Shown: in pieces, positions 1 to 64,000 of the stretch
How the letters are laid out: every line of letters begins with the position of its first letter
Position numbering within the stretch: the first letter of the stretch is position 1
Source of the DNA: a virus
Taxonomy: Duplodnaviria > Caudoviricetes
Strand: one strand, 5' to 3'
Virus record (IMG/VR): IMGVR_UViG_3300020049_011034
Span: 416 to 64,415 of that record
DNA: 64,000 nucleotides
Translations under genes and position numbers: made by a program
Notes under the pieces: model-generated
The model's input: the letters and a program-made list of their open reading frames with translations, nothing else
What the model was told of the DNA's origin: nothing
The model's database searches: none

Positions 1-1
1 T

Positions 2-493
2 ATACAGATTGTAACGGGGTCGAAGCAGGCTTTTTTTAAACTCATTGGAGACTATGCGGAAAACATAAAAGATGTAATAGTGTGGCACAAGGGAGACGGG
101 CAACCATCCATGCACCCGGACGTGTTGAACGCCTCGCACGAACTTATTTTAGTTTTGGAGGCTGACAAAAAATGTGGGAGAGCGATAACAAACTCGTACT
201 TTGATCGGGGCAGGATGTCAAACCTATGGACAATAATCAACAAAAAACAAGAGGCGGATGGCCATGGGGCGGCGTTCCCGCTGCAACTCGCAGAAAAGAT
301 AGTTGTTAATTTTTCTAAAAAAGGGGGCTTGGTATATGACCCTTTTGGCGGAACTGGAACAACCGCAATAGCATCCATCAAAAACGAAAGGCGCTGGATT
401 TTAAGTGAGTTAACGGCTGAATACGCGCTATCTTCTGAAAAGCGCGTTTCCCAACATTTGCAGCAACCGTATTTATTTTCTAATTGCGTTTAA
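2..493 (+). CDS. DNA methyltransferase, N4-C/N6-A (beta-class) type, 5'-truncated by the window edge
   Basis: Frame is open from base 2. Contains GHGAAFPLQLAEKIV and the SAM-binding motif VYDPFGGTGTTAIA, then ILSEL. Locally AT-rich. Confidence 0.85.
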   Translation: MQIVTGSKQAFFKLIGDYAENIKDVIVWHKGDGQPSMHPDVLNASHELILVLEADKKCGRAITNSYFDRGRMSNLWTIINKKQEADGHGAAFPLQLAEKIVVNFSKKGGLVYDPFGGTGTTAIASIKNERRWILSELTAEYALSSEKRVSQHLQQPYLFSNCV

Positions 494-551
494 CTCCAAG
501 CCTGACGAAGTCCGACCGCATGGGAGGATTGCCGGCAGGCGACAGTTATAC
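488..551. other. attC-like recombination hairpin (site C)
   Basis: GTTTAAC...GCCTG...CAGGC...GTTATAC, 64 bp. The methyltransferase stop TAA (491-493) lies inside the RYYYAAC-like box. Confidence 0.5.
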
Positions 552-6366: not shown

Positions 6367-6941
6367 CCATCGAGCAGGCACGGCAAACTTTTTTGAAGCG
6401 ATACGATGAGTTTGCTTCTGATATGGCTATTCTGTTCGTGGAGGAACTGGAAGCGCAAGGCCACCGCGCAACGGGAAAACTGATTGCATCAGTGGTGGCG
6501 AAGGTGAAAACAATGCTGGATAACATCGAGGTGCAGATGTCGCACCTGGACTACGGAATAATTGTAAATACCGGCCTGTCACCGGAGCGCGTTCCATATA
6601 GCCGGGGTAGTGGCGCAAAGACTTCGAAGTTTATCGAGGCGCTCATGGGATGGATACGATTAAAGGGAATAGGCGGGGGCCTGGACAAGACAGTGAGGGG
6701 TATTGCATTTGCTATGGCCACGACGATGAAGCGCGAAGGGGTACCGACAAAGGGTAGTTACCGATTTACGTCCAACGGTAGGCGTACCCAGTGGATAGAC
6801 TACATCTATAACCGGTACAATGTGGAGTGGCAGGACAGGATTGCGGATATTTCGGGCGACTACATGGAAGATGTGTTTGACGCCATGTTGGAGCAAACCG
6901 CCCGGGCATACAGCCCATACATTCAGTTTTCCAAAAATTGA
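6363..6941 (+). CDS. putative neck/head-tail joining protein (HK97 gp10-like)
   Basis: ATGKLIAS...DYGIIVNTG...ALMGWIRLKG...AFAMATTMKREG pattern and size. Confidence 0.5.
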   Translation: MTIEQARQTFLKRYDEFASDMAILFVEELEAQGHRATGKLIASVVAKVKTMLDNIEVQMSHLDYGIIVNTGLSPERVPYSRGSGAKTSKFIEALMGWIRLKGIGGGLDKTVRGIAFAMATTMKREGVPTKGSYRFTSNGRRTQWIDYIYNRYNVEWQDRIADISGDYMEDVFDAMLEQTARAYSPYIQFSKN

Positions 6942-7005
6942 CGTTCGTTCGATTCTCTGGTTTTGGGCATGAGAATCGAACGAACGTCACCAACACAAAT
7001 AGCAC

Positions 7006-29917: not shown

Positions 29918-30673
29918 ATGAGCAACTCAATCCAACCCGCAACCTCGAACGAAACCAACAACGCCTACATCGCCCGCGCGATGAAGTACACCCAACCCAA
30001 AGACATGACGGAGATCGAACGCGATTGCCACATTGCCATCCGCAACCAGTTCCGTGGGTTCGTCGAAGAAACCGGCGCTCCGAGTGTCAACAAGGCAACC
30101 CCCGAACAACTCAAAGCGGCCATCGAACAGACCTGCACCTACGTTCGCGGAGGGGTTGCCTATGATGGCGGAAAGAAACTCACGACGGCTGATCAGGTAG
30201 TGGTTGCGGCCTGGGCGCTTCGCTTCGAATGCAATGTTGTTTCCAAGGCAGAAGAAATCACAGTGGGCCGCGCCATCGAAAAGTATGTGATCGCAGGCTT
30301 TGACTTCGAAGCCAACTGTGGAAAGAAAAAGGCTGCTCCGGTTAAAGCGACTCCTGCAAAAAAACAGCCGGTTGAATCCGCGCCCGCCGTATTCGGCGAA
30401 TGGGTGGAGCGCCTCGATCTTATTCCGCAACTCGAATTTCACGGGGCCGATTCCCCGGAGCGCGTGGCCGAACTGCTCGAAGCATGGAACCAGGGCGGCG
30501 AATTCCGCCTGATGGTCAAGCGCTCGACCGCCCTGGCCCTGAAAGTTTCCACACTTGATGAGCAGGCCAACCGTCAAACTCTCGTGGCCTTCGATGTGAA
30601 CGGTAAGAAAGTGGGAATGGCCTACATGGACAAACTTACCCAGTACTTCACAGTGGTTGAAAAACAGGCATGA
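29918..30673 (+). CDS. hypothetical early protein
   Basis: 251-aa ORF directly after the promoter. Confidence 0.7.
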   Translation: MSNSIQPATSNETNNAYIARAMKYTQPKDMTEIERDCHIAIRNQFRGFVEETGAPSVNKATPEQLKAAIEQTCTYVRGGVAYDGGKKLTTADQVVVAAWALRFECNVVSKAEEITVGRAIEKYVIAGFDFEANCGKKKAAPVKATPAKKQPVESAPAVFGEWVERLDLIPQLEFHGADSPERVAELLEAWNQGGEFRLMVKRSTALALKVSTLDEQANRQTLVAFDVNGKKVGMAYMDKLTQYFTVVEKQA

Positions 30674-31503
30674 GCGACTACACGACACTCTTTGTGAACG
30701 ACCCGAAGGTTCGGGCGTTCACAAAGCAGTTCGAGCACCAGGCGTACGGTCAAGGTCATTACTCGCAGGTATTCGAGGACTTCTTGGATTTCTGCATTTA
30801 CTACTTGTCGCTCGGACTTGTAAACGAGAACTGGAAGCGTCTCCAAGAAACCTACAAGGATAAAGGGATGGATGGGTTTATGACGCTCTTCGAACTTTTA
30901 GGTGATGCGTCAGATGACTTTAAGGATATGCTTGGAACGGTTTACATGGACATCGCATCGCAACACAAGGCATCGGCAATGGGTCAGTTTTTTACGCCGG
31001 GTAATGTGTCGCACATGATGTCAGAAATGATCCTGGGCGATATGGACACGGAGAAGATAGGGCAGAAAATCAGCGATCCGAGTTGCGGAAGCGGCATCAT
31101 GATCCTGAAAGCGGCCCGAAGGTTCGGAGAGAAAAGGCACCTACAGCACTTCATGGGCGCCGACCTCGACAGGATATGTTGCAAGATGTGCGCCATCAAC
31201 ATGAGCCTGAACACCATCCCGGGAGAAGTCTATCACATGAACAGCCTGAGCCTGCAACATTTCGGAGCCTACTCGCTCGTTCTGGACAGGCTTGACGGCA
31301 AATGGATCACCTGGATAGCGCGTTGGCCGCAGGAGCGGATTGACGCCATCAACGAACGAATCAAACAAGATTTTCAACAATCAGACGAACAGCGGAAAGA
31401 AGCGATAGAGGCTGAACGAGAGCGCCAGCGCGAAGAGCAGATTCAAAAACGGCTCAGAGCGAAGGACGAAAAGAAAGGCTTCGCCGCTACCCTGTTCGAT
31501 TAA
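30670..31503 (+). CDS. HsdM-like N6-adenine methyltransferase fragment (no NPPY/F motif seen)
   Basis: MGQFFTP, ISDPSCGSGIMI, GADLD...KMCAINM; no motif IV follows. Confidence 0.75.
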   Translation: MSDYTTLFVNDPKVRAFTKQFEHQAYGQGHYSQVFEDFLDFCIYYLSLGLVNENWKRLQETYKDKGMDGFMTLFELLGDASDDFKDMLGTVYMDIASQHKASAMGQFFTPGNVSHMMSEMILGDMDTEKIGQKISDPSCGSGIMILKAARRFGEKRHLQHFMGADLDRICCKMCAINMSLNTIPGEVYHMNSLSLQHFGAYSLVLDRLDGKWITWIARWPQERIDAINERIKQDFQQSDEQRKEAIEAERERQREEQIQKRLRAKDEKKGFAATLFD

Positions 31504-33051: not shown

Positions 33052-33110
33052 ACAGGCAATCAGCCATGCACCAATGTCACGAAAACAATGGTGCATGGCT
33101 GATTGCCTGT
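33052..33110. repeat. perfect 22-bp inverted repeat (long hairpin)
   Basis: ACAGGCAATCAGCCATGCACCA (33052-33073) and TGGTGCATGGCTGATTGCCTGT (33089-33110); no T-run. Confidence 0.9.
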
Positions 33111-33834: not shown

Positions 33835-34578
33835 ATGGAAAACAACACCACACCGGGTAACGGTAACAACAATTTCGTCTATCACTCTGCCGACTTTTGG
33901 GAGAGCGCACAGACATCCGAACTTGACGCCGCGCTCGTCAAGTTCAACGCAAAATTCAAGGCCGTCAAGCGCGATGAGACCGTAACCGTGCCGGGACGGG
34001 CCGCCCGTAAATTCGCAAGCCTTGACGAGATCATGATCGAGGTTCGCCCTATACTGGCTGAGAACGGCCTGTACGTTCAGCAGCCCATCACAGGCGACAA
34101 GATCACTACCATCGTCAGGCATGCATCCGGCCAGTTCCGCGCCTTCTCCATGCCGATGGTTGCTTGGCAAGGCCAGGGAACGACGGCCATTCAGAACTTG
34201 GGCGGCGCCATCACCTATATGCGCCGCTACTCCCTGGGCGCCGCGCTGGCCCTCGCCACCGAGGAAGATGATGACGGACAGAACACTGGCAAACTGGACA
34301 TAAAGAAATCTGGCCGTCAGGAGCCCGCCGCGACCGCAAAGCAGCCGGCGATTGATGACGCCATACTGGACGCATGGAATGCCAAGATGAACGAATGCAA
34401 AACCGACGACGACTTTCAGCGGGTATCCAAAGAGGTCGCCGAAATGGAGGAGGGGCCAGTAAAGAAGTTCGTACGGGCAACCATGAAATCCCGGCTGGAA
34501 AAACTGGACATGGAGTATAACCACGACCTGAAAATTTTCCAGAAGAAAATGCCTCAACCCACAGAAAAGCAGGCATGA
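33835..34578 (+). CDS. erf: ERF-family single-strand annealing recombinase
   Basis: FASLDEI...LAENGL...QNLGGAITYMRRYSLGAALALATEEDDDG. Confidence 0.9.
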   Translation: MENNTTPGNGNNNFVYHSADFWESAQTSELDAALVKFNAKFKAVKRDETVTVPGRAARKFASLDEIMIEVRPILAENGLYVQQPITGDKITTIVRHASGQFRAFSMPMVAWQGQGTTAIQNLGGAITYMRRYSLGAALALATEEDDDGQNTGKLDIKKSGRQEPAATAKQPAIDDAILDAWNAKMNECKTDDDFQRVSKEVAEMEEGPVKKFVRATMKSRLEKLDMEYNHDLKIFQKKMPQPTEKQA

Positions 34579-35297
34579 AACAGTCGCTGAAAATATCACC
34601 ATCCACGCTTGAAGATTACCGCAACTGCGTCCTGGGAAACTACCGAAAAACGGTAGAGGACTTTATTGCCAAACTCGACCAGCCGTGGATCAAGACCGAA
34701 GCGCAATCCAAGGGAGAGGCTTACCACAAACTCATTGAGTTGGGGCCTCTCCCCTTTCGGGAAACCGCGCCGGACGCATCTACACGGTACCGGGTGAACG
34801 ACCCGGAAATGAACATCGACTGGATTTTCAACGAGGCCCAGGCCGCGCCCGCGCTGGCCACGCACGTTGATCATCCGAACGTGAAGCGCGAAGTCTGGGG
34901 ACGGCTAAACTTCGACTTGGACAATTACTCCGTTCGCATGAACCTGCGGGTGGATGCGATGGATACAAACGGAAAGTTTGTGATCTGGGACTACAAAACC
35001 ACTGGATCGAAATACGTGCCGCAAAAACAACCATACTACGAAAGCGTCCAGTGGCCGCTTTACATGATGGCTTATCCTGACGCCACGCTTTTTCGCTTCC
35101 GGGTGTTTCACCTGCACGACCAGGTATGTGACCAACACGACTTCCTTTTTGACAAGGACCTGGCCCGGGAAGAATATGCCCGGCGCTGGTTGATACACCT
35201 GGTCAATTTCGCCGAACAAAGGGGGATCATCGAAAAATTCTTTCACTTAACCGAAGGCAACAATGAGTCTGTACGAAATCGAAACACAGTACCGTGA
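34575..35297 (+). CDS. PD-(D/E)XK exonuclease (Cas4/AddB-like)
   Basis: ISPSTL, KGEAYHKLIE, LRVDAM...IWDYKTTG...QWPLY; next to erf. Confidence 0.75.
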   Translation: MKQSLKISPSTLEDYRNCVLGNYRKTVEDFIAKLDQPWIKTEAQSKGEAYHKLIELGPLPFRETAPDASTRYRVNDPEMNIDWIFNEAQAAPALATHVDHPNVKREVWGRLNFDLDNYSVRMNLRVDAMDTNGKFVIWDYKTTGSKYVPQKQPYYESVQWPLYMMAYPDATLFRFRVFHLHDQVCDQHDFLFDKDLAREEYARRWLIHLVNFAEQRGIIEKFFHLTEGNNESVRNRNTVP

Positions 35298-40605: not shown

Positions 40606-40764
40606 ATGAATGCTCAGGACATCATCAACCAATGCTACATCCAAGATGGTGTAGTAAAACTCCCGGAGGGGCAACTCGAAAGAAAACTGTACACGGAAGT
40701 TGCTGCCCGATTAGAAGGTATCGGCGGCAAATGGAGGGGCGGCAAAATATTTGGTACGGCATGA
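40606..40764 (+). pseudogene. 52-aa remnant resembling the N-terminus of a phage methyltransferase
   Basis: VVKLPEGQLERKLYTEVAARLEGIGGKWRGGKIFG, then an early stop overlapping the dam-like ATG. Confidence 0.45.
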
Positions 40765-41564
40765 TTGACAGCATAGCGCCATACCTGCCGGCTTGCGACC
40801 ATTACTGCGAGCCGTTCTGTGGATCCATGGCAATGCTGCTCAACCGCGACCCCTCTCCCATCGAGACGGCAAACGACTTGAACGGCGATGTGGTGAACTT
40901 CTTTCGGGTCCTGAAAAAGTACAAGCGGGTATTTGTGACGGAACTGGCGCTGACACCATACAGCCGATACGAGTTTGAGCAGGCATGGCAGGATACAGAC
41001 GACGATTTTGAGCGCGCCAAACGGTTTTTCATCCGGGTGGCCATGGACATAGCAAAGGCCGGAAAGCGCGGCGACCGCTCCTGGAGCGTCAATGTGAAGT
41101 ACCTGCCTGGCGAGCACTCATACGCGCCGCTGAATTTTTTGAAAAAGGTACACGGGCTGCCTGAAATCGTGGCCCGTTTGCGCCGCGTCCAATTGGAGAA
41201 CCGACCGGCCGTGAAAATTATCAAGAAGTTCGACAGGCCCGGGACGCTCTTCTATTGCGACCCGCCGTACATGCACGAAACGCGAACATCGAAGGCAGAT
41301 TACAAATTCGAGATGGACTACAACGCACATGTGGAACTTGCAGCCGCCTTAGGCGGCTGCAAGGGAATGGTGGCACTGTCAGGATACGATCACCCCATAA
41401 TGGATGTGCTGTACGAGGGCTGGCACAAAGTGAAGTTTAAGTCCAAGCAGGTACCCATGAGCAACAACGCCAACCCCAAAAAAGGAACACCCAGGGTAAC
41501 GCAGGAATGCCTGTGGATGAATTACGACATCAACTATATCAACGGTCAACTTAAACTATTCTAA
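40761..41564 (+). CDS. dam: Dam-like (D12-class) DNA adenine methyltransferase lacking the N-terminal GGK motif
   Basis: YCEPFCGS, NDLNGDVVNFF, FYCDPPY, VALSGY. Confidence 0.8.
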   Translation: MIDSIAPYLPACDHYCEPFCGSMAMLLNRDPSPIETANDLNGDVVNFFRVLKKYKRVFVTELALTPYSRYEFEQAWQDTDDDFERAKRFFIRVAMDIAKAGKRGDRSWSVNVKYLPGEHSYAPLNFLKKVHGLPEIVARLRRVQLENRPAVKIIKKFDRPGTLFYCDPPYMHETRTSKADYKFEMDYNAHVELAAALGGCKGMVALSGYDHPIMDVLYEGWHKVKFKSKQVPMSNNANPKKGTPRVTQECLWMNYDINYINGQLKLF

Positions 41565-41953: not shown

Positions 41954-42552
41954 GCGCACTTTTCATATACCCAATGCTCCAAGCCGCCCGTCAATATTTG
42001 AAAACCGAGACGCGCCGCTTCGGAGAAAAACAGAACTGGAAAGTCGGCCAGCGTCTGTACGTCAAAGAGCCTGTCATCCTGATGGGCGATGTCGGCCAGA
42101 CACCGAAAGCGAAGGACGTTATCTGGCAGCAGGGCGAACTCAAGTTCACCCGCGTTCAATACCTGTACGATGACCAGACATTACCGACCGATGACGGAAC
42201 CTTCTGGATCAAGAAACAAAAACTGTTTTGCCCGGAAGCCGCCGCCCGATTCATGATCCAGATTACAAACGTGAAGCGCCAGCGCCTGGGCGATATGCAG
42301 GACTGCGAGTACCGCAACGAAGGTTTGCAGCAACATTTCGCAGTCGCACTCGACGACCGCAGCGCGCCTGGCAAAGAATGGCGCGTAGAAATGGCGAACA
42401 GCCTGATGTTCTCCGACTCCGACCCGGCGAAGGTGTACGCCTACCTGCTCAATGCGACCGCAGGGGGGAAGAAAGTCTATAACCCGGACGCGCTGGTTTG
42501 GGCCTACAAATTCATGTGGCTACCCTACCAGCGGCCAGTAAAGTTGAAGTGA
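41947..42552 (+). CDS. hypothetical protein (possibly ASCH/PUA-like)
   Basis: KTETRR...VGQRLYVKE...RFMIQITNVKRQRLGDM pattern. Confidence 0.4.
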   Translation: MVGALFIYPMLQAARQYLKTETRRFGEKQNWKVGQRLYVKEPVILMGDVGQTPKAKDVIWQQGELKFTRVQYLYDDQTLPTDDGTFWIKKQKLFCPEAAARFMIQITNVKRQRLGDMQDCEYRNEGLQQHFAVALDDRSAPGKEWRVEMANSLMFSDSDPAKVYAYLLNATAGGKKVYNPDALVWAYKFMWLPYQRPVKLK

Positions 42553-43298
42553 TGGAAAACGCACCCGCAAAATGGCTGGAAGTCGAAGAAGACATCCTTC
42601 GCAAATGGTACGAGCGCAACGGCTCCGACTTCTGCGATACCGTTATCGGCGAACTCCTGGGCTGGAAGCGTGGAGCGCGCAACGTAATGCAGAAGGCATG
42701 GAAACTTGGCCTTCGCTACAAAGGCCCACGGCGCGGCGTGTTCAAAAAGGGACTTGTGCCCTTCAACAAGGAGCGCAAGATGCCGGCAGACTTGTATGCT
42801 CAGTGTGCTCCGACGATGTTCAAAAAGGGCCAGAAGCCGCACAACACCAAGCCAGAGGGCGAGGATATTTCAATCCGGTACGATAATCGCGGCGTTGCCG
42901 TGCTGCACAAGAAGATAGCGCTTGGAAAGTGGGTGTACCTTTCGCGGTACAACTACGAAAAATACATCGGCGAGATTCCAAAGGGTCATATCGTCATCCA
43001 TAAGGACGGCAATACCATGAACTGCGACCCCTCGAACCTGGAACTGATGACCCGGGCAGACAATGCGCGAAGGAACTACAGCCGTGAAAAGTTCATGGCC
43101 TGGCACAGAGAACTCACCGACGAATATGTGCTGTGGTATCAGACGCGGTACAAACACGCCGAAGGGATAGACCTTGAGACCGCCCGCGCCAACGGCCTTA
43201 TTGAGATATGGCGCGCCGAAATCCAACTGAAACGCAAAGTTTTAACGGTAAAAAAAGTCAACAACAATGAATATCGCAACAAAAAAGCGCCTCAATGA
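42552..43298 (+). CDS. HNH endonuclease
   Basis: FKKGQKPHN, IPKGHIVIHKDGNTMNCDPSNLELMTRADNARRN. Confidence 0.85.
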   Translation: MENAPAKWLEVEEDILRKWYERNGSDFCDTVIGELLGWKRGARNVMQKAWKLGLRYKGPRRGVFKKGLVPFNKERKMPADLYAQCAPTMFKKGQKPHNTKPEGEDISIRYDNRGVAVLHKKIALGKWVYLSRYNYEKYIGEIPKGHIVIHKDGNTMNCDPSNLELMTRADNARRNYSREKFMAWHRELTDEYVLWYQTRYKHAEGIDLETARANGLIEIWRAEIQLKRKVLTVKKVNNNEYRNKKAPQ

Positions 43299-46912: not shown

Positions 46913-47431
46913 ATGGGAAAAGGTAAATGGGATATGGAATCCGTTCGCGCCGTCGCTGCGCGCGGCCTGGTCGTGAAGATGAGCGATGGCGGATCGGTTG
47001 ATTTCACCATGCACGACCCGAAAGACCCAACGTACCAAGGCCACGAGGTGGCGGCGCCCGCGCCGAACAAATTCAGGAACATCATCACCGAGATTGACGG
47101 GATCAAATTCAGGTCAAAACTCGAAGGAAACAGATACCTGCAACTCAAAATGATGTTGAACGCAGGACTGATACACGAATTCAAAAAGCAGGTCCCTTTT
47201 GACCTGAGGGTAAACGGAGTTCATATCACACGCTACATTGCCGACTTTGTGGTAAGATACCCAGACGGAACGGTAGTCGTAGAGGACACGAAAGGTGTCG
47301 AGACTGAGGCGTTCAAGATCAAAAAGAACCTCATGCTCGCTACCATGGGAATCGAAATTCAACTTATTTGCAACATCAACAACAATGGCAACAACAAAAA
47401 AAGCAAAAGCCACCGAACCCGGCGCCACTGA
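46913..47431 (+). CDS. DUF1064-like PD-(D/E)XK endonuclease
   Basis: IDGIKFRSKLEGNRYLQL...QVPFDL...YIADFVV...VEDTKG. Confidence 0.8.
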   Translation: MGKGKWDMESVRAVAARGLVVKMSDGGSVDFTMHDPKDPTYQGHEVAAPAPNKFRNIITEIDGIKFRSKLEGNRYLQLKMMLNAGLIHEFKKQVPFDLRVNGVHITRYIADFVVRYPDGTVVVEDTKGVETEAFKIKKNLMLATMGIEIQLICNINNNGNNKKSKSHRTRRH

Positions 47432-49301
47432 ATCGCCCCATTCGGCGGCAGTGCAAATCGAGATGCTCAGGCTCTCAAACCTTTTCCCTTCGCCTACCAA
47501 CCCGCGCAAAACTTTCCCGGAAGCGGAACTGAGCGAACTGGCAAACTCCATCGCGACCAACGGCCTGATTAACCCCATCACCGTCCGCGCTGTGCCGGCA
47601 GTTCCCGGGCAGTATGAGGTAATATCCGGTGGGCGCCGCTATCGCGCATCCATCATGGCCGGTCTGCTCGAAATTCCGTGCATCGTACGCGAACTGAATG
47701 ACGCGCAGGTGATCGATATGCAGATTGAGGAGAACCTTCACCGGCAGGACGTGCCGGCACTCGAAGAGGCTGAGGCCTTCGAAAGCCTGATAACCGCAGG
47801 GAAACTTACTGTGGCGGAATTGGCCGGGCGGCTCAATAAGTCGGCGGCTTACGTGTACCGGCGCCTGAAACTCAACAACCTTGATGAGAAGTACCGGCCA
47901 TTTATCACGAGCGGCGAACTCGCGCCGGCCACCGCAGAAGTAATTGCCTCTTACCCGCAGGACGTGCAGGTATCTATGTTCAGGAAAGTTACCTATACCA
48001 ACGGTGACAAAACGACATTCGTAGAAACGCGTTCGATGCGCGACAAATTCAAGTGGGAAGCCTGCACCGATCTCAACAAGGCAATCTGGCCGCTGTGGAG
48101 AAATGACCTGCAACCCGGGCTGCAAGCCTGCAACACCTGTGAGAAAAACACAGCGGTTGCAACGCTGCTTTTCCCGGACGGCGAAGCCGAGCCGAAATGC
48201 ACCGACAAAGCCTGTTGGAAGGTGAAGGAATCAGTATGGAAGGCGCTGGCCCTGAAGGAGTGGCAGGCCGAATGCGAAAAACGCGGATTTACCCCGGCCT
48301 TTGCAGACTTGCGGTATTACGAAATGAACGACAAGAAAACGGTGACAAGGGTTCTTGAATACGAACCGGAAGTGATTGGCCGCTATAATTACGAGGTGGT
48401 GGAAGAAGGGACGCCCGGCGCAATTGAGGTGCTTTTCCTGGGTGGGGAACAATGGGACGCTGCCGAGCGCGAAAGAAACTACCGGCGCGGCTGGATCGTA
48501 ATGAAGGAAGCGAAGGGATATCAGAAAGACGGCAACCGCGATTGGGACATGGAGCGCATTGATGCAATGGATATTTCCGAAGAAGAAAAACAGGTGATGC
48601 GCGACAACCTGATCGAGAAACGCCGTCAGCAAAAAGAAGAAGCGGCCAGGTTCACACAGGACAAAAAGTGGATACTGGCGATATTGGAGGCGGTGAACAC
48701 TGCGACGGCCAGTGCCGGCGCCGGACACGAATTGCTTATCCAGATCATGCGGTTGTTTGTCCGTAAGAACATGAGCGGCTACGGGATGCGCAGTTCGTGG
48801 CTTGACGTCTTCCCGGAAGAGGCGAAAAATTGGAAGCCGACATCCTTTGCCATCCGCGTAAACGGCCAGGGAGAAGGACAGGAGCAGAACCCGAAGTGGA
48901 CTAAAGGTTGCGTCGAGGCATGGAACAAAGTGCTGGCAAAGCACCAACAAAAAGGCGACTACCAACCCATGCATGAAATGGCGTGGCAGAACTGGATCAA
49001 CGGCGAAGAAACAGCGGCATGGCTGGATGGAATACTGCTCAATGCTGACAACGACCGCATTATACGACTGTTTGGTTATATCGTACTCGAAGGCGCTTCC
49101 GAATCAGTAAGTCGCACGTACCAGTGGAAAGACGCGATGGCGATTGATTTTTTCACCAGGTTGGCGAGCGCCGCTGTCATCAATTATGAGGCGCTCAAGC
49201 CCGATCTGAACCTTGACGACGAGGAAAACGAGGACTACGATGATGAGGAGGAAGAATACGATGAAGGCCTTGCTCTTGAAGACGAAGAAGGCGAAAGTTG
49301 A
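47385..49301 (+). CDS. ParB/RepB/Spo0J-family protein with a long C-terminal extension
   Basis: NPRKTF...ELANSIATNGLINPITVR...ISGGRRYRAS...IEENLHRQD; HTH LAGRLNKSAAYVYRRLKL. Confidence 0.85.
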   Translation: MATTKKAKATEPGATESPHSAAVQIEMLRLSNLFPSPTNPRKTFPEAELSELANSIATNGLINPITVRAVPAVPGQYEVISGGRRYRASIMAGLLEIPCIVRELNDAQVIDMQIEENLHRQDVPALEEAEAFESLITAGKLTVAELAGRLNKSAAYVYRRLKLNNLDEKYRPFITSGELAPATAEVIASYPQDVQVSMFRKVTYTNGDKTTFVETRSMRDKFKWEACTDLNKAIWPLWRNDLQPGLQACNTCEKNTAVATLLFPDGEAEPKCTDKACWKVKESVWKALALKEWQAECEKRGFTPAFADLRYYEMNDKKTVTRVLEYEPEVIGRYNYEVVEEGTPGAIEVLFLGGEQWDAAERERNYRRGWIVMKEAKGYQKDGNRDWDMERIDAMDISEEEKQVMRDNLIEKRRQQKEEAARFTQDKKWILAILEAVNTATASAGAGHELLIQIMRLFVRKNMSGYGMRSSWLDVFPEEAKNWKPTSFAIRVNGQGEGQEQNPKWTKGCVEAWNKVLAKHQQKGDYQPMHEMAWQNWINGEETAAWLDGILLNADNDRIIRLFGYIVLEGASESVSRTYQWKDAMAIDFFTRLASAAVINYEALKPDLNLDDEENEDYDDEEEEYDEGLALEDEEGES

Positions 49302-49362: not shown

Positions 49363-49680
49363 ATGACATACATCATCTTATTCCTGTTTACCTGGTGGGC
49401 ATTCAGTGTAGTGCTGACTTTCAGGAGCGGCATTTTTGTCAAGCGGCTGCAAGAGGAAATACCCGTGTTGTTTATGCTGCCACAATGGTTGTCAATCCTT
49501 TTGCTGATTTTCATCATGGCCGTCATTGCCCCATACGTGATGACCGCGCCGGTGAAACTTGCCCGCCGTTGGATACTACTCAGGCTCATTGTCTGGCGCG
49601 TCCGCAGAATGGCAAGGGGAAAAGAGGCCGGACTTTCCAACGAATTAAAATCAATCTCAAAACGAATAACGAAACTGTAA
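49363..49680 (+). CDS. small membrane protein
   Basis: Two hydrophobic segments and a basic C-terminus. Confidence 0.55.
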   Translation: MTYIILFLFTWWAFSVVLTFRSGIFVKRLQEEIPVLFMLPQWLSILLLIFIMAVIAPYVMTAPVKLARRWILLRLIVWRVRRMARGKEAGLSNELKSISKRITKL

Positions 49681-50489
49681 TGGCATACACCGACCACACC
49701 AATCCCGATACCACAGGCGAGTTTAACCAGGTCGCACCCAAGTATGACAGGCATTTTGATAACCGGTTCGACCGCGCCGAGGAAAACGTTTTGTTCGCCC
49801 GCTTCGGGCATTTGCTGCAAAACGCGGACGTGCTGGACATCGGGTGCGGTACGGGCCTGGTAAAGCGCCTCTCCGATCGGCTGTTATTCTGTCCGCGCAC
49901 ATATACCGGCGTTGACTCCTCTGCAGATATGATTGTAGAAGCGTCAAAAAAATACGGCCTTGCTGATTTGGCTATACCATCGCCAAAAACCAGCCCGTAT
50001 GGAGCATCCGGTTTTGCGATTGATGACATGGTAGAATTTATGTGGGCGCAGCCGCCTGCATCATACGACGTGGTGACGTCGTTCTATTTCCCCATGAACT
50101 ACTGCCAGCAGCACCCACGCGAAGTGTATGAGGCTGTATCGCACGTTCTCCGACCGGGCGGGCATTTCATCAACGTCATGGCATCGAGCCGCTACGCAGT
50201 GCGCGGGTCACACATTGTGCGCGACGCCAACCTGCGACGCTATTTCGAGCCGAATGAATATTACCTGAATGATTGTATTGGACTTCTCAAGCCCATTGCA
50301 ATCGTCGGGTTCAACTACTTCATCGAGCGTTACAGGCGCTGGCTCGAATTTTGCCCGCAATATGTTATCGAGGCAATGTTTCGCTTTGACCAGATTCGGG
50401 GCGAGAAATCACGCATGACGCCGTACTTTTACGGCATCCACTTACAAAAGCCACCGCTTTACTATGAAAAAACTCCTTTGGATATGTAG
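49680..50489 (+). CDS. class I SAM-dependent methyltransferase
   Basis: VLDIGCGTG, YTGVDSSADMI, YDVV, VLRPGGHF. Confidence 0.85.
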   Translation: MAYTDHTNPDTTGEFNQVAPKYDRHFDNRFDRAEENVLFARFGHLLQNADVLDIGCGTGLVKRLSDRLLFCPRTYTGVDSSADMIVEASKKYGLADLAIPSPKTSPYGASGFAIDDMVEFMWAQPPASYDVVTSFYFPMNYCQQHPREVYEAVSHVLRPGGHFINVMASSRYAVRGSHIVRDANLRRYFEPNEYYLNDCIGLLKPIAIVGFNYFIERYRRWLEFCPQYVIEAMFRFDQIRGEKSRMTPYFYGIHLQKPPLYYEKTPLDM

Positions 50490-52606: not shown

Positions 52607-52810
52607 GTGACGAAAAAACCGACATCCGCCGTCGAAGTCGCCCGTTTGCTGCTTTCGGCAAACACCCTCGAACAGTTGGACGCGCTGCGCCCCCATATTA
52701 CCTTTGCAGAAGTAGCAACATCAGAACTGCTGGCTGAGATATTCAACCACAAGTTCGCCGCCCTATGCAAAAAGTCGCCGCCAACGTCGTCAAGAAAGGC
52801 CAAAAGGTAA
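52607..52810 (+). CDS. hypothetical protein
   Basis: 67-aa ORF between the PP-loop and ParB genes. Confidence 0.4.
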   Translation: MTKKPTSAVEVARLLLSANTLEQLDALRPHITFAEVATSELLAEIFNHKFAALCKKSPPTSSRKAKR

Positions 52811-53676
52811 TAGAGAAAAACTTCAACACGCTCGAAGCCCTTCGCGTGTTCTATATCCCGCACGGGATGATCGCCCCAAACCACTACAATCCGAACCGAC
52901 AAAGCGAGTTTGAATTTGAACTCCTGCTCAAGTCCATGAGCGAGGACGGTTTCACCCAGCCCATTGTCACGCGACCGCTCTTTACCGACGTACAGGCCCG
53001 AGAAGCCCTGGGACTGCCGGCAGACTGCAAGCACAAGGACATTGACTGGCTCGATGCTGCCTACAAACTCAATTCCGGGTTTATGGTAGTGGACGGTGAG
53101 CACCGGTGGAAAGCCGCCCGCGAACTGGGTTACGCCGACGTGCCCTGCGTTGTCACCTACATGACCGATGCCCAGATGCGCATTGCCACACTCCGGCACA
53201 ATCGCGCCAGGGGCACGGAGGATATCGCGCTCACCGCCGAGGTCCTGCGGGACTTGGAAAAACTCGGCGCGCTGGATCACGCCGCCGACTCCCTGCAGAT
53301 GGACGATGTGGAAATCCAAAAACTGCTGTCCGAAGCCACCGCCGTTGACGACCTGGGCCAGAACGAGGATTTCAACAAATCGTGGGAGGTCAACACCGCG
53401 CTTATCCCGTCCGCAAACCCGGGCGACGGGTTCAACGTGGGCATGACGGCCAAGGCCATCGAAGAGCAGCGGCGGATCCAGCGCGCCAATGACGAGGCAA
53501 AGACCAACGAGGAACGGCAGATGGTCCAGAAATCATCCGACCTCGTGCGCATCATGCTCGTATTCCAGGGCGATGAAGCCCGGCTGGTCCAAAAAGTTTT
53601 GGGTAAGCAGCAGGCCGAAAGGCTGCTCGAGCTGTGCCAGCGTGAAATGGCAGCAAATCCCGGTGACTATGAATGA
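52765..53676 (+). CDS. ParB-like nuclease-domain protein (IbrB-like)
   Basis: PNHYNPNRQ...LLKSMSEDGFTQPIV...VVDGEHRW...ATLRHNRARG. Confidence 0.85.
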   Translation: MQKVAANVVKKGQKVIEKNFNTLEALRVFYIPHGMIAPNHYNPNRQSEFEFELLLKSMSEDGFTQPIVTRPLFTDVQAREALGLPADCKHKDIDWLDAAYKLNSGFMVVDGEHRWKAARELGYADVPCVVTYMTDAQMRIATLRHNRARGTEDIALTAEVLRDLEKLGALDHAADSLQMDDVEIQKLLSEATAVDDLGQNEDFNKSWEVNTALIPSANPGDGFNVGMTAKAIEEQRRIQRANDEAKTNEERQMVQKSSDLVRIMLVFQGDEARLVQKVLGKQQAERLLELCQREMAANPGDYE

Positions 53677-61903: not shown

Positions 61904-62049
61904 TGACCGTCGAGCAGTTGCCACCACTTGCCCAGGTATTATTCTGGTCGCTGTTTCTTGCACCATTCGGCGCCGGGTGGCTGGGCGAGCAGTTTGGCCA
62001 GTGGCTTCGCCGGAAATACGAATCCAGAAAAATCAAAAAACGGGCATAG
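61900..62049 (+). CDS. 49-aa membrane peptide
   Basis: ATGA-coupled; hydrophobic core and basic tail. Confidence 0.45.
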   Translation: MMTVEQLPPLAQVLFWSLFLAPFGAGWLGEQFGQWLRRKYESRKIKKRA

Positions 62050-62102
62050 ATTTTGCCCATAATCCATACCTCCCGATTGTTCACAATTTTCTCATAAAGG
62101 TT

Positions 62103-62516
62103 ATGATTCGCAACATCACAACAGTACTCGCGCTGCTTGCAGCACTCTCGTCCTGTACAGGACAGAACCCTGAAACATTCACCGTTCACGCCGAAATCAT
62201 GGGGGCGCCCTCGTTCTACGATGCGCCTGCCCGCGAAATGGAGACTGCGCCCGCAACGGCCCGCAATATCTCCATCGGCACAAAATCCCTGTACGCGTAC
62301 TACGACAATGCCGAATTCATCCTGTCCTACTGCGGAGAAGTATTCATCGAGGCTGGCGGGCAGGACGGCAAAACAGTCCCCGCCGATGTGTACCAGATTG
62401 AACCGGGCGTATGGATAGCCGAAATACCCGGTGGCCAGTATGTCAAGGTATTCACCGAAAGCGGAAATACCAACACCGATTTGGACGGGGAATTCAGGAC
62501 ATACCACAGAAATTAA
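62103..62516 (+). CDS. putative lipoprotein
   Basis: MIRNITTVLALLAALSS-CTGQ lipobox. Confidence 0.6.
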   Translation: MIRNITTVLALLAALSSCTGQNPETFTVHAEIMGAPSFYDAPAREMETAPATARNISIGTKSLYAYYDNAEFILSYCGEVFIEAGGQDGKTVPADVYQIEPGVWIAEIPGGQYVKVFTESGNTNTDLDGEFRTYHRN

Positions 62517-62609
62517 AAAACCGATAATCCACCGCGCCGGGGCTCAATGCAGCAGTCCCGGCGTTTTTGTTTCCAAATACATATCTTTCGCACTCAAACC
62601 AACCCGGCA

Positions 62610-63389
62610 ATGGAAAAAGGATTCAAGGGGCTTTCGCTCCACGTAGGCATCAACAAATACGACCGCGAATACTACGGCGGCAACATTGACCTCAACCAGT
62701 GCGTGTTCGACGCCGAGCGCCTGCATGATTTCGCCGTCGAGCGCGACTACCAGGCCAACCTGATGACCAACAGCAATGCCACAGTAGCCAGGTTCAGGGA
62801 ATTCATCATAAATGCCGCCAAGACGCTCAAGAAGGGCGACTTCTTTTTCCTGACCAATTCCAGCCACGGCACCTACGATGACAATATCGTGAACGGACAG
62901 ACCAAGCGCATGACTGCGATTTGTCTGCATGACGGTATATTTTGGGATTACGAGTTCCGGGAACTGCTCAAGAAGTTCAAAGCCGGCGTCACCGTGATCT
63001 GGCTCAGCGACTGCTGTTTCGCAGAATCCAACTGGCGATTCATGCGCGGTGAAGACCAGCGGCCATACAACGGCGCCCGCGCCCGTTTTGTCCGTGCTCC
63101 ACAGGCTGTGAATGAGGCGAAGGTTACAGCCACGCAGGGCGATAAGCGCAGCATCAAGGCAAAGATGTTTACCTATTCGTCCAGCAACATCTACCAGGTG
63201 TCCTACGAAGATGACCGTGGCGGCGTATTTACCACGTCCGTGCTGGATGCGTTGACAAAGGAACCTAACCTGTCGTATTACCAACTGTGGCGGCGCACAT
63301 CTGAAATTATCGCGCCGCTGTACCCGCAAAGCCCTGTGTTCGAGAACGTGCGGGCATCGCATCTCACCGGCAACCTGTTTTTGGCCTAA
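62610..63389 (+). CDS. caspase-like (peptidase C14/metacaspase) cysteine protease
   Basis: LHVGINKY...LNQCVFDAERL...FFLTNSSHGT (His)...WLSDCC (Cys)...GGVFT...QSP; promoter-like TATCTTTCG at 62582-62590. Confidence 0.85.
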   Translation: MEKGFKGLSLHVGINKYDREYYGGNIDLNQCVFDAERLHDFAVERDYQANLMTNSNATVARFREFIINAAKTLKKGDFFFLTNSSHGTYDDNIVNGQTKRMTAICLHDGIFWDYEFRELLKKFKAGVTVIWLSDCCFAESNWRFMRGEDQRPYNGARARFVRAPQAVNEAKVTATQGDKRSIKAKMFTYSSSNIYQVSYEDDRGGVFTTSVLDALTKEPNLSYYQLWRRTSEIIAPLYPQSPVFENVRASHLTGNLFLA

Positions 63390-63445
63390 CTGCGGCTTGT
63401 ACACCTTCGCCTAATCGGCGAGCGGCGTACAAGCCGCAGTTAGGC
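63384..63445. other. attC-like recombination hairpin (site A)
   Basis: GCCTAAC...GTTAGGC, 62 bp; perfect 25-bp arms 63378-63402/63427-63451; caspase stop TAA inside the R'' box. Confidence 0.6.
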
Positions 63446-63460
63446 CAAAAAAATGATTCT

Positions 63461-63706
63461 ATGGAAATTGTAAACATTGTAATTGCCGACATCAACCAGA
63501 TAAAGGAGAATATTCTCCGCGATCTGATTGAGAAAATAGAAGGCCGCCCGGCTGAGTTAGCCGATGCAAAAAACCTTGCTCTGATAACCTATCCGCATAA
63601 CTTCCTAAAGGATAGGCAAAGGGTTGTATATCTTGATATTGAACTTGGAGACCTTGAGGTAGACATGATCGAGATGGTTGTCAAGTTTATTCCTATTGTC
63701 GAATAA
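63461..63706 (+). CDS. 81-aa hypothetical protein, cassette-like
   Basis: AT-rich single ORF bounded by attC-like sites A and B. Confidence 0.6.
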   Translation: MEIVNIVIADINQIKENILRDLIEKIEGRPAELADAKNLALITYPHNFLKDRQRVVYLDIELGDLEVDMIEMVVKFIPIVE

Positions 63707-63764
63707 CTGGTGCTTTCCCGCTTTTGACCGCTTAGGGAATATTGGCGGGAAAGCGGGGTTATGC
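63701..63764. other. attC-like recombination hairpin (site B)
   Basis: GAATAAC-TGGT-GCTTTCCCGC...GCGGGAAAGC-GGG-GTTATGC, 64 bp; ORF stop TAA inside TAAC. Confidence 0.55.
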
Positions 63765-63792
63765 GGATTATATCACATTAAATTTTCTAAAA

Positions 63793-64000
63793 ATGGAAGA
63801 CAACGTAAAAAGGATTGCAGGCGAAATAGCCAGCCTAAAAAAAACCATAATCGCCAGAGAAAAGGTGCTGGCAAAACTTCTTAAAGAAAGCGGCGAGCCT
63901 CTGCGCCAAGAAAAACTAAAATCTACTGACCTCGCCCCCTTTTTAGAGGGTGACATAAAAGTAAAATTCGGAAGAGGACAAGATGAATATATCGGACAAT
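63793..64000 (+). CDS. hypothetical protein, 3'-truncated, cassette-like
   Basis: MEDNVKRIAGEIASLKK...; open to the window end; AT-rich. Confidence 0.5.
   Translation, partial: MEDNVKRIAGEIASLKKTIIAREKVLAKLLKESGEPLRQEKLKSTDLAPFLEGDIKVKFGRGQDEYIGQ

Follow-up and report, generated by a model that had tools for sequence, protein, structure and literature searches.

We find that a phage contig from IMG/VR (record IMGVR_UViG_3300020049_011034; Duplodnaviria, Caudoviricetes) carries an array of hairpin sites that delimit small accessory genes, and we read this locus as an integron-like cassette array carried by the phage, with a probability of roughly 0.6. The contig comprises 64,415 bases, is of the linear class, and has an estimated completeness of 78%; the stretch analyzed here (the window, 64,000 nucleotides [nt]) corresponds to contig bases 416-64415, and the array spans both contig ends. 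The hairpins bound single-gene units, as a preliminary description of this DNA had proposed, and it is precisely at the sites that relatives of the phage acquire, lose, or exchange such units. To account for this pattern, a site-specific recombinase would recognize one folded strand and cut inside T-AA|C-T. Units would leave as circles (we infer both the circular intermediate and the single-stranded substrate), the two unit ends would pair within the circle to complete a 7-bp (base pair) outer box, and the unit would then be inserted at a different site, either in the phage that it came from or in one that co-infects. The enzyme would presumably come from the host, as a tyrosine recombinase of IntI or Xer type.

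The window holds three sites, all on the plus strand, and the positions and letters first given for them prove exact. Site A, a type A hairpin of unusual form, lies at 63384..63445 (GCCTAAC-TGCG-GCTTGTAC...GTACAAGC-CGCA-GTTAGGC), and site B, a canonical type B hairpin, lies at 63701..63764 (GAATAAC-TGGT-GCTTTCCCGC...GCGGGAAAGC-GGG-GTTATGC). Site C, a type C hairpin at 488..551 (GTTTAAC-TCCAA-GCCTG...CAGGC-GACA-GTTATAC), closes the array and goes with the terminase side. At all three sites, as had been noted, the TAA within TAAC is the stop codon of the upstream open reading frame (ORF), namely, a caspase-like gene at site A, orf81 at site B, and a methyltransferase gene (which ends at 493) at site C. 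The next ORF begins with an ATG 15 nt past site A (63461) and 28 nt past site B (63793), and the AT-richer genes described after site A are reflected in a G+C content that falls from 0.50-0.57 to 0.41-0.43 past position 63400.

The cassette headed by site A has orf81 (63461..63706, plus strand) as its sole small ORF, which ends at the TAA of site B; it has no Pfam or PHROG match, and its stretch is missing both from relative L005 and from a variant in metagenome run X7. The cassette headed by site B contains orfX, whose 5' part (63793..64000, plus strand) is truncated by the contig end. At the other end of the contig, a degenerate half-site D (GGCGGGAAAGC-ATG-GTTAAAC; contig bases 112-132) stands 18 nt before the start, at contig base 150, of an N6_N4 DNA methyltransferase gene, the C-terminal two thirds of which occupy 1..493 of the window on the plus strand (Pfam PF01555, E 2.4e-27). 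The methyltransferase cassette thus runs from half-site D to site C, and its position holds other genes in relatives L005 and L009. Half-site D retains only a 3' arm, which is of type B and common with that of site B, and its interior resembles a site in L005; an ORF open at its 5' end (contig bases 1-159) reads through it.

These sites belong to a structured family. Viral contigs were scanned with the outer letters of site C and then scanned a second time, and two covariance models were built, R1 for type C sites and R2 for the other types. The resulting family comprises 125 sites at 44 loci of uncultured phage contigs, mostly from activated sludge and wastewater, and all sites of any one locus share the same orientation. 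R1 and R2 detect each other's sites; since R2, built without type C sites, recovers these at E values of 1e-5 to 1e-3, all types form one family. Each site is an imperfect hairpin of 53 to 80 nt on the gene-sense strand, which reads xxxTAAC, a spacer of 4 to 5 nt, a GC-closed stem of 8 to 11 bp, a tip such as GnWTA or TTAG, the return stem, and GTTAxxx. The 3' spacer is always 1 nt shorter than the 5' spacer (4/3 or 5/4 nt), an asymmetry that is constant, and the tip is partly conserved across sites. Type C sites follow the pattern TCCAA GCCT..AGGC GACA, with a nearly invariant 5/4-nt spacer; type A sites read TGCG GCTTGTAC..GTAC GGGCAAGC AGG, and type B sites read TGnn GCTTTCCCGC..GCGGGAAAGC GGG. 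The spacers of types A and B (TGnn / nGG, 4/3 nt) are conserved in their letters, and further types exist.

Covariance analysis supports the family, and sites A, B, and C are the only ones that R1 and R2 find within the window. The inner (L) stem is 92% paired, with 5 of its 9 pairs changed on both sides, and neither any of 500 shuffles nor any slid control reaches the observed covariation score. The outer triplets AAC/GTT occur in every site retained for the family, and the full TAAC occurs in 119 of 125. No Rfam family matches at gathering scores; at E <= 10, the only matches are of generic microRNA hairpins to site A. Site B scores 70.6 bits against R2 (E 6e-14), and the same type occurs in 26 viral stretches; its single-stranded DNA fold has an energy of -15.5 kcal/mol (z -4.7). 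The fold of site C (-12.8 kcal/mol, z -1.6) is by itself indistinguishable from those of shuffled sequences, and the site is backed by its family (68.6 bits against R1), its type being present in many phage contigs. Site A folds most stably (-37 kcal/mol, z -11.5) and scores higher against R2 on the minus strand (43.8 bits) than on the plus strand (27.2 bits). Its arms (63378-63451) form a perfect palindrome that reaches 9 nt past TAAC into the 3' end of the caspase-like gene (TTTTTGGCC / GGCCAAAAA); the right arm is a copy of that 3' end, and the interior corresponds to other type A sites in reverse complement. The structure looks as if template switching had perfected a quasi-palindrome or a loop had flipped between perfect arms.

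The comparison with relatives places the exchanges at the 5' edge of the hairpins. The backbone of L005 is 96% identical to the window, diverges at 63390, and matches again from 491; both positions are TAAC, and between them L005 holds a different hairpin and a different small ORF. L009 has the same breakpoint pattern with another methyltransferase, and the homology of the caspase-like gene with both relatives runs to TAAC and stops there. More generally, identity between shared cassettes begins and ends within T-AAC-T, the core common to all sites and hence the limit to which a breakpoint can be resolved. The hairpin interior tracks the downstream sequence in 13 site pairs and the upstream sequence in 0, and identical cassettes found in unlike contexts retain the hairpin at the 5' side but not the one at the 3' side (L109/L023, L025/L031, and L103/L108/L039). 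These alignments indicate that the hairpin belongs to the downstream gene, and they place the crossover at the 5' TAA|C instead of the 3' G|TT. The preliminary description had predicted gain and loss at G|TT; breakpoints do fall at the sites, but in the 5' TAAC core. On the complementary strand, a 5' T-AAC-T breakpoint of the coding strand is itself a G|TT. The mobile unit accordingly reads C, hairpin, GTTAxxx, short leader, ORF, and x'x'x'TAA.

Folding is also strand specific, as had been suggested. The sense strand folds more stably in 32 of 44 sites, and G.T pairs number 73 on the sense strand versus 28 on the other. In types A and B, the sense strand has 2 to 4 G.T pairs and the opposite strand has none; a particular G.T pair persists in 21 of 23 sites. 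In integrons, attC recombination occurs at the junction of A and C within AAC, in the folded bottom strand's 5' arm (PMC5027507). The coding strand of the phage arrays therefore takes the role of the "bottom" strand, and the genes are inverted relative to canonical cassettes.

The ends of the units provide a second signature. For non-redundant cassettes, we compared the 3 nt that follow GTTA at one site with the 3 nt that precede TAAC at the next. The two ends are perfectly complementary in 29 of 57 cassettes, against a permutation expectation of 9.4 +/- 2.3 and a maximum of 19 in 50000 trials (p < 2e-5). Rare end pairs match too (TTT/AAA, GAC/GTC, ACC/GGT, and AAT/ATT), and the flanks of one and the same site match in 17 of 125 cases, about what chance would give. 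One apparent mismatch, in L023, was due to an undetected long site that lay between the two sites compared. Within the window, the methyltransferase unit is complementary (GTTAAAC ... GTTTAAC), and the orf81 unit is not, a misfit that is probably owed to the remodeled site A. Complementary unit ends are, as in integron cassettes, the expected mark of a cassette that circularizes; neither shuffling by homology nor an RNA hairpin of purely local function would readily produce them.

Natural populations show the same turnover. The phage is found in activated-sludge, wastewater, and some freshwater metagenomes (9 studies). When assembled contigs of four runs were aligned to 62000-64000, contigs from two studies broke at 63390, one variant (run X7) lacked 63474-63875, and other metagenome contigs joined site B to different neighbors on both sides. 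No excised circles were observed in these data, assembled contigs rather than raw reads, and this counts against an integron-like array. Coverage in run X2 is 124-241x over the hairpins (63407-63473 and 63675-63808; 169-241x at site B) versus about 16x over the backbone. The sites are therefore repeated across community genomes, roughly 10-fold above phage depth, which breaks assemblies and explains why this one ends inside the array. Cassettes measure 46 to 2340 bp, typically 200 to 800 bp, and carry one or two ORFs in the sense orientation, which start 13 to 35 nt past GTTA and stop in TAAC or about 8 nt before it. Most of these ORFs belong to no known family. N6_N4 methyltransferases recur among them, and this recurrence of DNA methyltransferases suggests an anti-restriction cargo. 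Arrays are not universal in this phage group, since the complete relative L008 (G004), whose large terminase is 71% identical, has no sites.

Clusters of attC sites lacking an integrase (CALINs) are the closest known counterpart, and their presence in phages has already been published: 17 attC clusters without integrase were reported in cultured phages, in which methyltransferases are a common cargo and IntI1 recombined 5 of 6 tested sites (Qi et al. 2023, PMC9892861). The phage arrays resemble them in having an imperfect hairpin on one strand, an AAC/GTT outer box, an unpaired spacer, and an inner stem, in keeping structure more than sequence, and in an AAC crossover in the 5' arm of the folding strand. 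They also share tight, mostly single-ORF cassettes whose ends complete the outer box, the lack of a nearby integrase, and methyltransferase cargo. The CALIN-like interpretation offered at the outset therefore stands as far as integron-like turnover and complementary ends are concerned, but not for the architecture, in which the hairpin goes with the downstream gene and the polarity is opposite. On present comparisons, the array appears integron-like in operation, with a coding-strand polarity inverted relative to the canonical one; membership of its sites in the canonical attC class is a candidate assignment that is partly supported.

Several observations weigh against an integron-like array, and some concern the sites themselves. 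In the phage, the genes lie on the folding strand, each preceded by its hairpin instead of followed by it. Spacers measure 4/3 or 5/4 nt and are conserved, whereas those of attC sites are 5 to 6 nt long and unconserved (PMC5027507). The phage sites also differ from attC in a partly conserved tip and, a further point on the same side, in having no clear extrahelical bases: type B stems are perfect, type A stems have an unpaired AA and GG on the 3' arm, and there are no conserved G/T bulges. Of the attC hallmarks, the hairpin and the AAC/GTT triplets hold, but the RYYY/RRRY ends mostly do not: RYYYAAC describes sites A (GCCTAAC) and C (GTTTAAC) but neither of the most frequent boxes, GCATAAC and GGCTAAC. 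Among published sites, the nearest look-alike is P12002L_attC1, which comes from a phage with a Bacteroidota host (TGCTAAC GGCTA CGGCTAAACGG..CCGTTTTAGCC ATT GTTAGGC). It has nearly the same layout and the same polarity to its genes; predicted with HattCI, it was the one phage site that IntI1 failed to recombine (PMC9892861). Its likeness is in layout only, as the best R2 match in Polaribacter phage P12002L (15.7 bits, E 0.17) is not significant.

Other points on that side concern the enzyme. The full 64,415-base contig encodes no tyrosine recombinase (PF00589, E <= 1), as expected from the preliminary description, and no Y1 transposase or resolvase; it thus carries no complete integron (intI, attI, and the Pc promoter). 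One complete array-bearing relative likewise lacks tyrosine recombinases, Y1 transposases, and resolvases. Tyrosine recombinases occur in 4 of 37 array-bearing records, most of which are fragments. L108 (4442-5709) and L114 (2-621) have a tyrosine recombinase gene in convergent orientation to the array, with a stop codon that overlaps a type C site at its GTTA end. We rejected this enzyme as the agent of the arrays: its Arm-binding, SAM-like, and catalytic domains are laid out as in ordinary Arm-type Bacteroidota integrases, its scores fall well short of the Xer and IntI cut-offs, and it has homologues without sites, no convincing site adjoining any of 17 closer viral homologues. We read it as a lysogeny integrase.

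A host integron as the source of the sites was also rejected. The exact type B pattern occurs in 3 short contigs of metagenome-assembled genomes (MAGs) among 185,579 species genomes, and the Lewinellaceae-binned MAG has no integron integrase above the family cut-off; the search for intI that had been proposed for the contig and candidate hosts thus gave none in the contig or in this MAG. Since the phage encodes no such enzyme, a host IntI or Xer recombinase is presumably the most economical guess. XerCD acts on the folded single-stranded attP of the CTX phage, where a host tyrosine recombinase likewise uses a phage DNA hairpin, and Xer-dependent dif modules of plasmids are likewise bounded by sites for a host enzyme. 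XerCD/dif systems serve to integrate entire phages or to shift modules from one 28-bp duplex site to another; in contrast, we recognized no dif-like 11-6-11 site in the phage array, and a role for Xer here would be one by analogy. Xer activity on single-stranded substrates has been stated (PMC5027507).

It is also possible, if somewhat doubtful, that the arrays are an independent cassette system of phages rather than stray integron pieces. Its sites would form a pool of their own, nearly confined to phages, the coding strand would be the reactive one, and a hairpin plus leader would head each gene; turnover would be driven by an enzyme not yet known as a cassette recombinase, either a Xer-type protein of the host that acts on phage DNA in single-stranded form or an unannotated phage protein.

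The remaining points against an integron-like array come from exchanges that do not stop at a site but inside the leader or the first codons of the ORF. Window 63704-63830 and L065:1581-1703 have in common site B, the 5' untranslated region (UTR), and about 13 codons (MEDNVKRIAGE...), followed by unrelated ORF bodies, and a conserved module likewise extends past the hairpin between L005:2729-2833 and L023:11253-11358. The hairpin plus leader thus seems to head different proteins. Chimeric sites count on the same side: one, at L114:932-995, joins a type A 5' arm to a type B 3' arm. Together with half-site D, it implies that exchanges occur inside hairpins too. Homology-driven events therefore coexist with the site-specific pattern.

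These exchanges are what an explanation by homology would lead one to expect. It holds that the hairpin plus leader, repeated before numerous small genes, is mainly a regulatory module, i.e., an RNA or expression element for processing, stability, or translation start, and that these repeats are shuffled by homologous recombination during co-infection, with no site-specific enzyme. The phage encodes the means, an Erf single-strand annealing protein and a PD-(D/E)XK nuclease (33835..35297, plus strand; PF04404, E 2e-15, and PF12705, E 4.8e-11), a recombination module that lies outside the array and could supply single-stranded DNA. The folding strand is moreover the mRNA-sense strand, with pairs of the G.U type, and there is a precedent in the promoter early stem-loops (PeSLs) of T4-type phages, repeated stem-loops that flank small accessory ORFs in variable regions and mark the boundaries of indels and replacements when close relatives are compared (PMC2839356, PMC4122927). 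PeSLs are, however, composites of promoter and terminator that recombine by homology, whereas the phage sites have only 13 to 35 nt between hairpin and ATG, which leaves no room for a promoter, along with a 5-nt core and complementary ends. Breakpoints between unlike site types fall in that 5-nt T-AAC-T, far too short for homologous recombination, and shuffling by homology explains neither the complementary unit ends nor the flanks of single sites that fail to match. We therefore consider this explanation unlikely, while taking it seriously.

An integron-like array must further be set against another enzyme that acts on single-stranded hairpins, either an HUH/Y1 enzyme of the IS200/IS605 kind or of the kind associated with repetitive extragenic palindromes (REPs), or an undescribed phage or host protein, with TAAC as its cleavage or target motif. 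Strand-specific hairpins with a fixed tetranucleotide beside the stem would suit such an enzyme, as would the scarcity of tyrosine recombinases, which most array-bearing records lack, and the weakly related hairpins near defense-type genes in the chromosome of the Lewinellaceae MAG. However, no Y1 transposase (PF01797) scores above the cut-off in the contig or in four relatives, one weak match lying below it. IS200/IS605 elements have a different hairpin at each end and no complementary unit ends, whereas the phage units have one hairpin each, and the arrangement of box, spacer, and stem, as well as the AA|C position, suits substrates of tyrosine recombinases better. We regard this alternative as improbable. 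That the hairpins are only transcription terminators or RNA stability elements, with gene differences unrelated to them, is in keeping with their stable folds and intergenic positions but very improbable, and we rejected it: the stems are not followed by a T-run (at site A, the T-run precedes the hairpin and an A-run comes after, each on the wrong side), breakpoints coincide with sites in many independent comparisons, and the complementarity of unit ends goes unexplained, so the refuting case envisaged by the preliminary description is contradicted.

The array sits between conserved backbone genes. The last of these before the array is the caspase-like (Peptidase_C14) gene (62547..63389, plus strand; PF00656, E 1.2e-17), and downstream of the array, on the plus strand, follow a putative small terminase (716-1252; phrog_15125) and the large terminase (1279-2757; PF03237, phrog_979). 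The phage, which comes from activated sludge, probably infects Saprospiraceae or Lewinellaceae (Bacteroidota). Its large terminase is nearest to those of phages of Bacteroidales hosts (30% identity), exact type B sites lie on small contigs binned with the Lewinellaceae MAG, and a homologue of the L108/L114 integrase occurs in a Saprospiraceae MAG. A TAnnTTTG motif, a Bacteroidota promoter consensus, lies 3' of site C.

Two contigs of the Lewinellaceae MAG (158 and 108 kb) contain weaker relatives of the hairpins, at 31 to 36 bits (L070:8383-8448, L070:9505-9570, and L068:9487-9551). These are flanked by chromosomal genes encoding Fic/DOC, AIPR, a ThsA macro domain, a D12 methyltransferase, and proteins sorted by the type IX secretion system (T9SS). 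Their polarity to the genes is opposite to that of the phage arrays, they have no R-box complementarity, and no integron integrase accompanies them.

The phage has at least four methyltransferase genes, of the N6_Mtase, D12, and S-adenosylmethionine-dependent Methyltransf_25 types in addition to the N6_N4 gene of the array; those outside the array lie at 30670-31503, 40632-41564, and 49395-50489. Two proteins with ParB-N domains (47295-49301 and 52765-53676) and an HNH endonuclease (42498-43298) are also present. Two palindromes outside the array match neither site model, one at 33052-33110 (26-nt arms, 96% complementarity, 7-nt gap) and one at 6939-6989 (19-nt perfect arms, 13-nt gap).

For phage attC clusters, which are already known from the literature, these data lead from prediction to evidence of turnover at the level of populations. 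The design of the sites and the polarity of the genes fall outside canonical integron models and bear on the origin of attC-type sites and cassettes. If the proposed mechanism is true, phages of a major group of wastewater bacteria would trade accessory, probably anti-defense, genes as ready-made cassettes through folded single-stranded sites, and this would be a route to phage mosaicism distinct from both homologous and illegitimate recombination.

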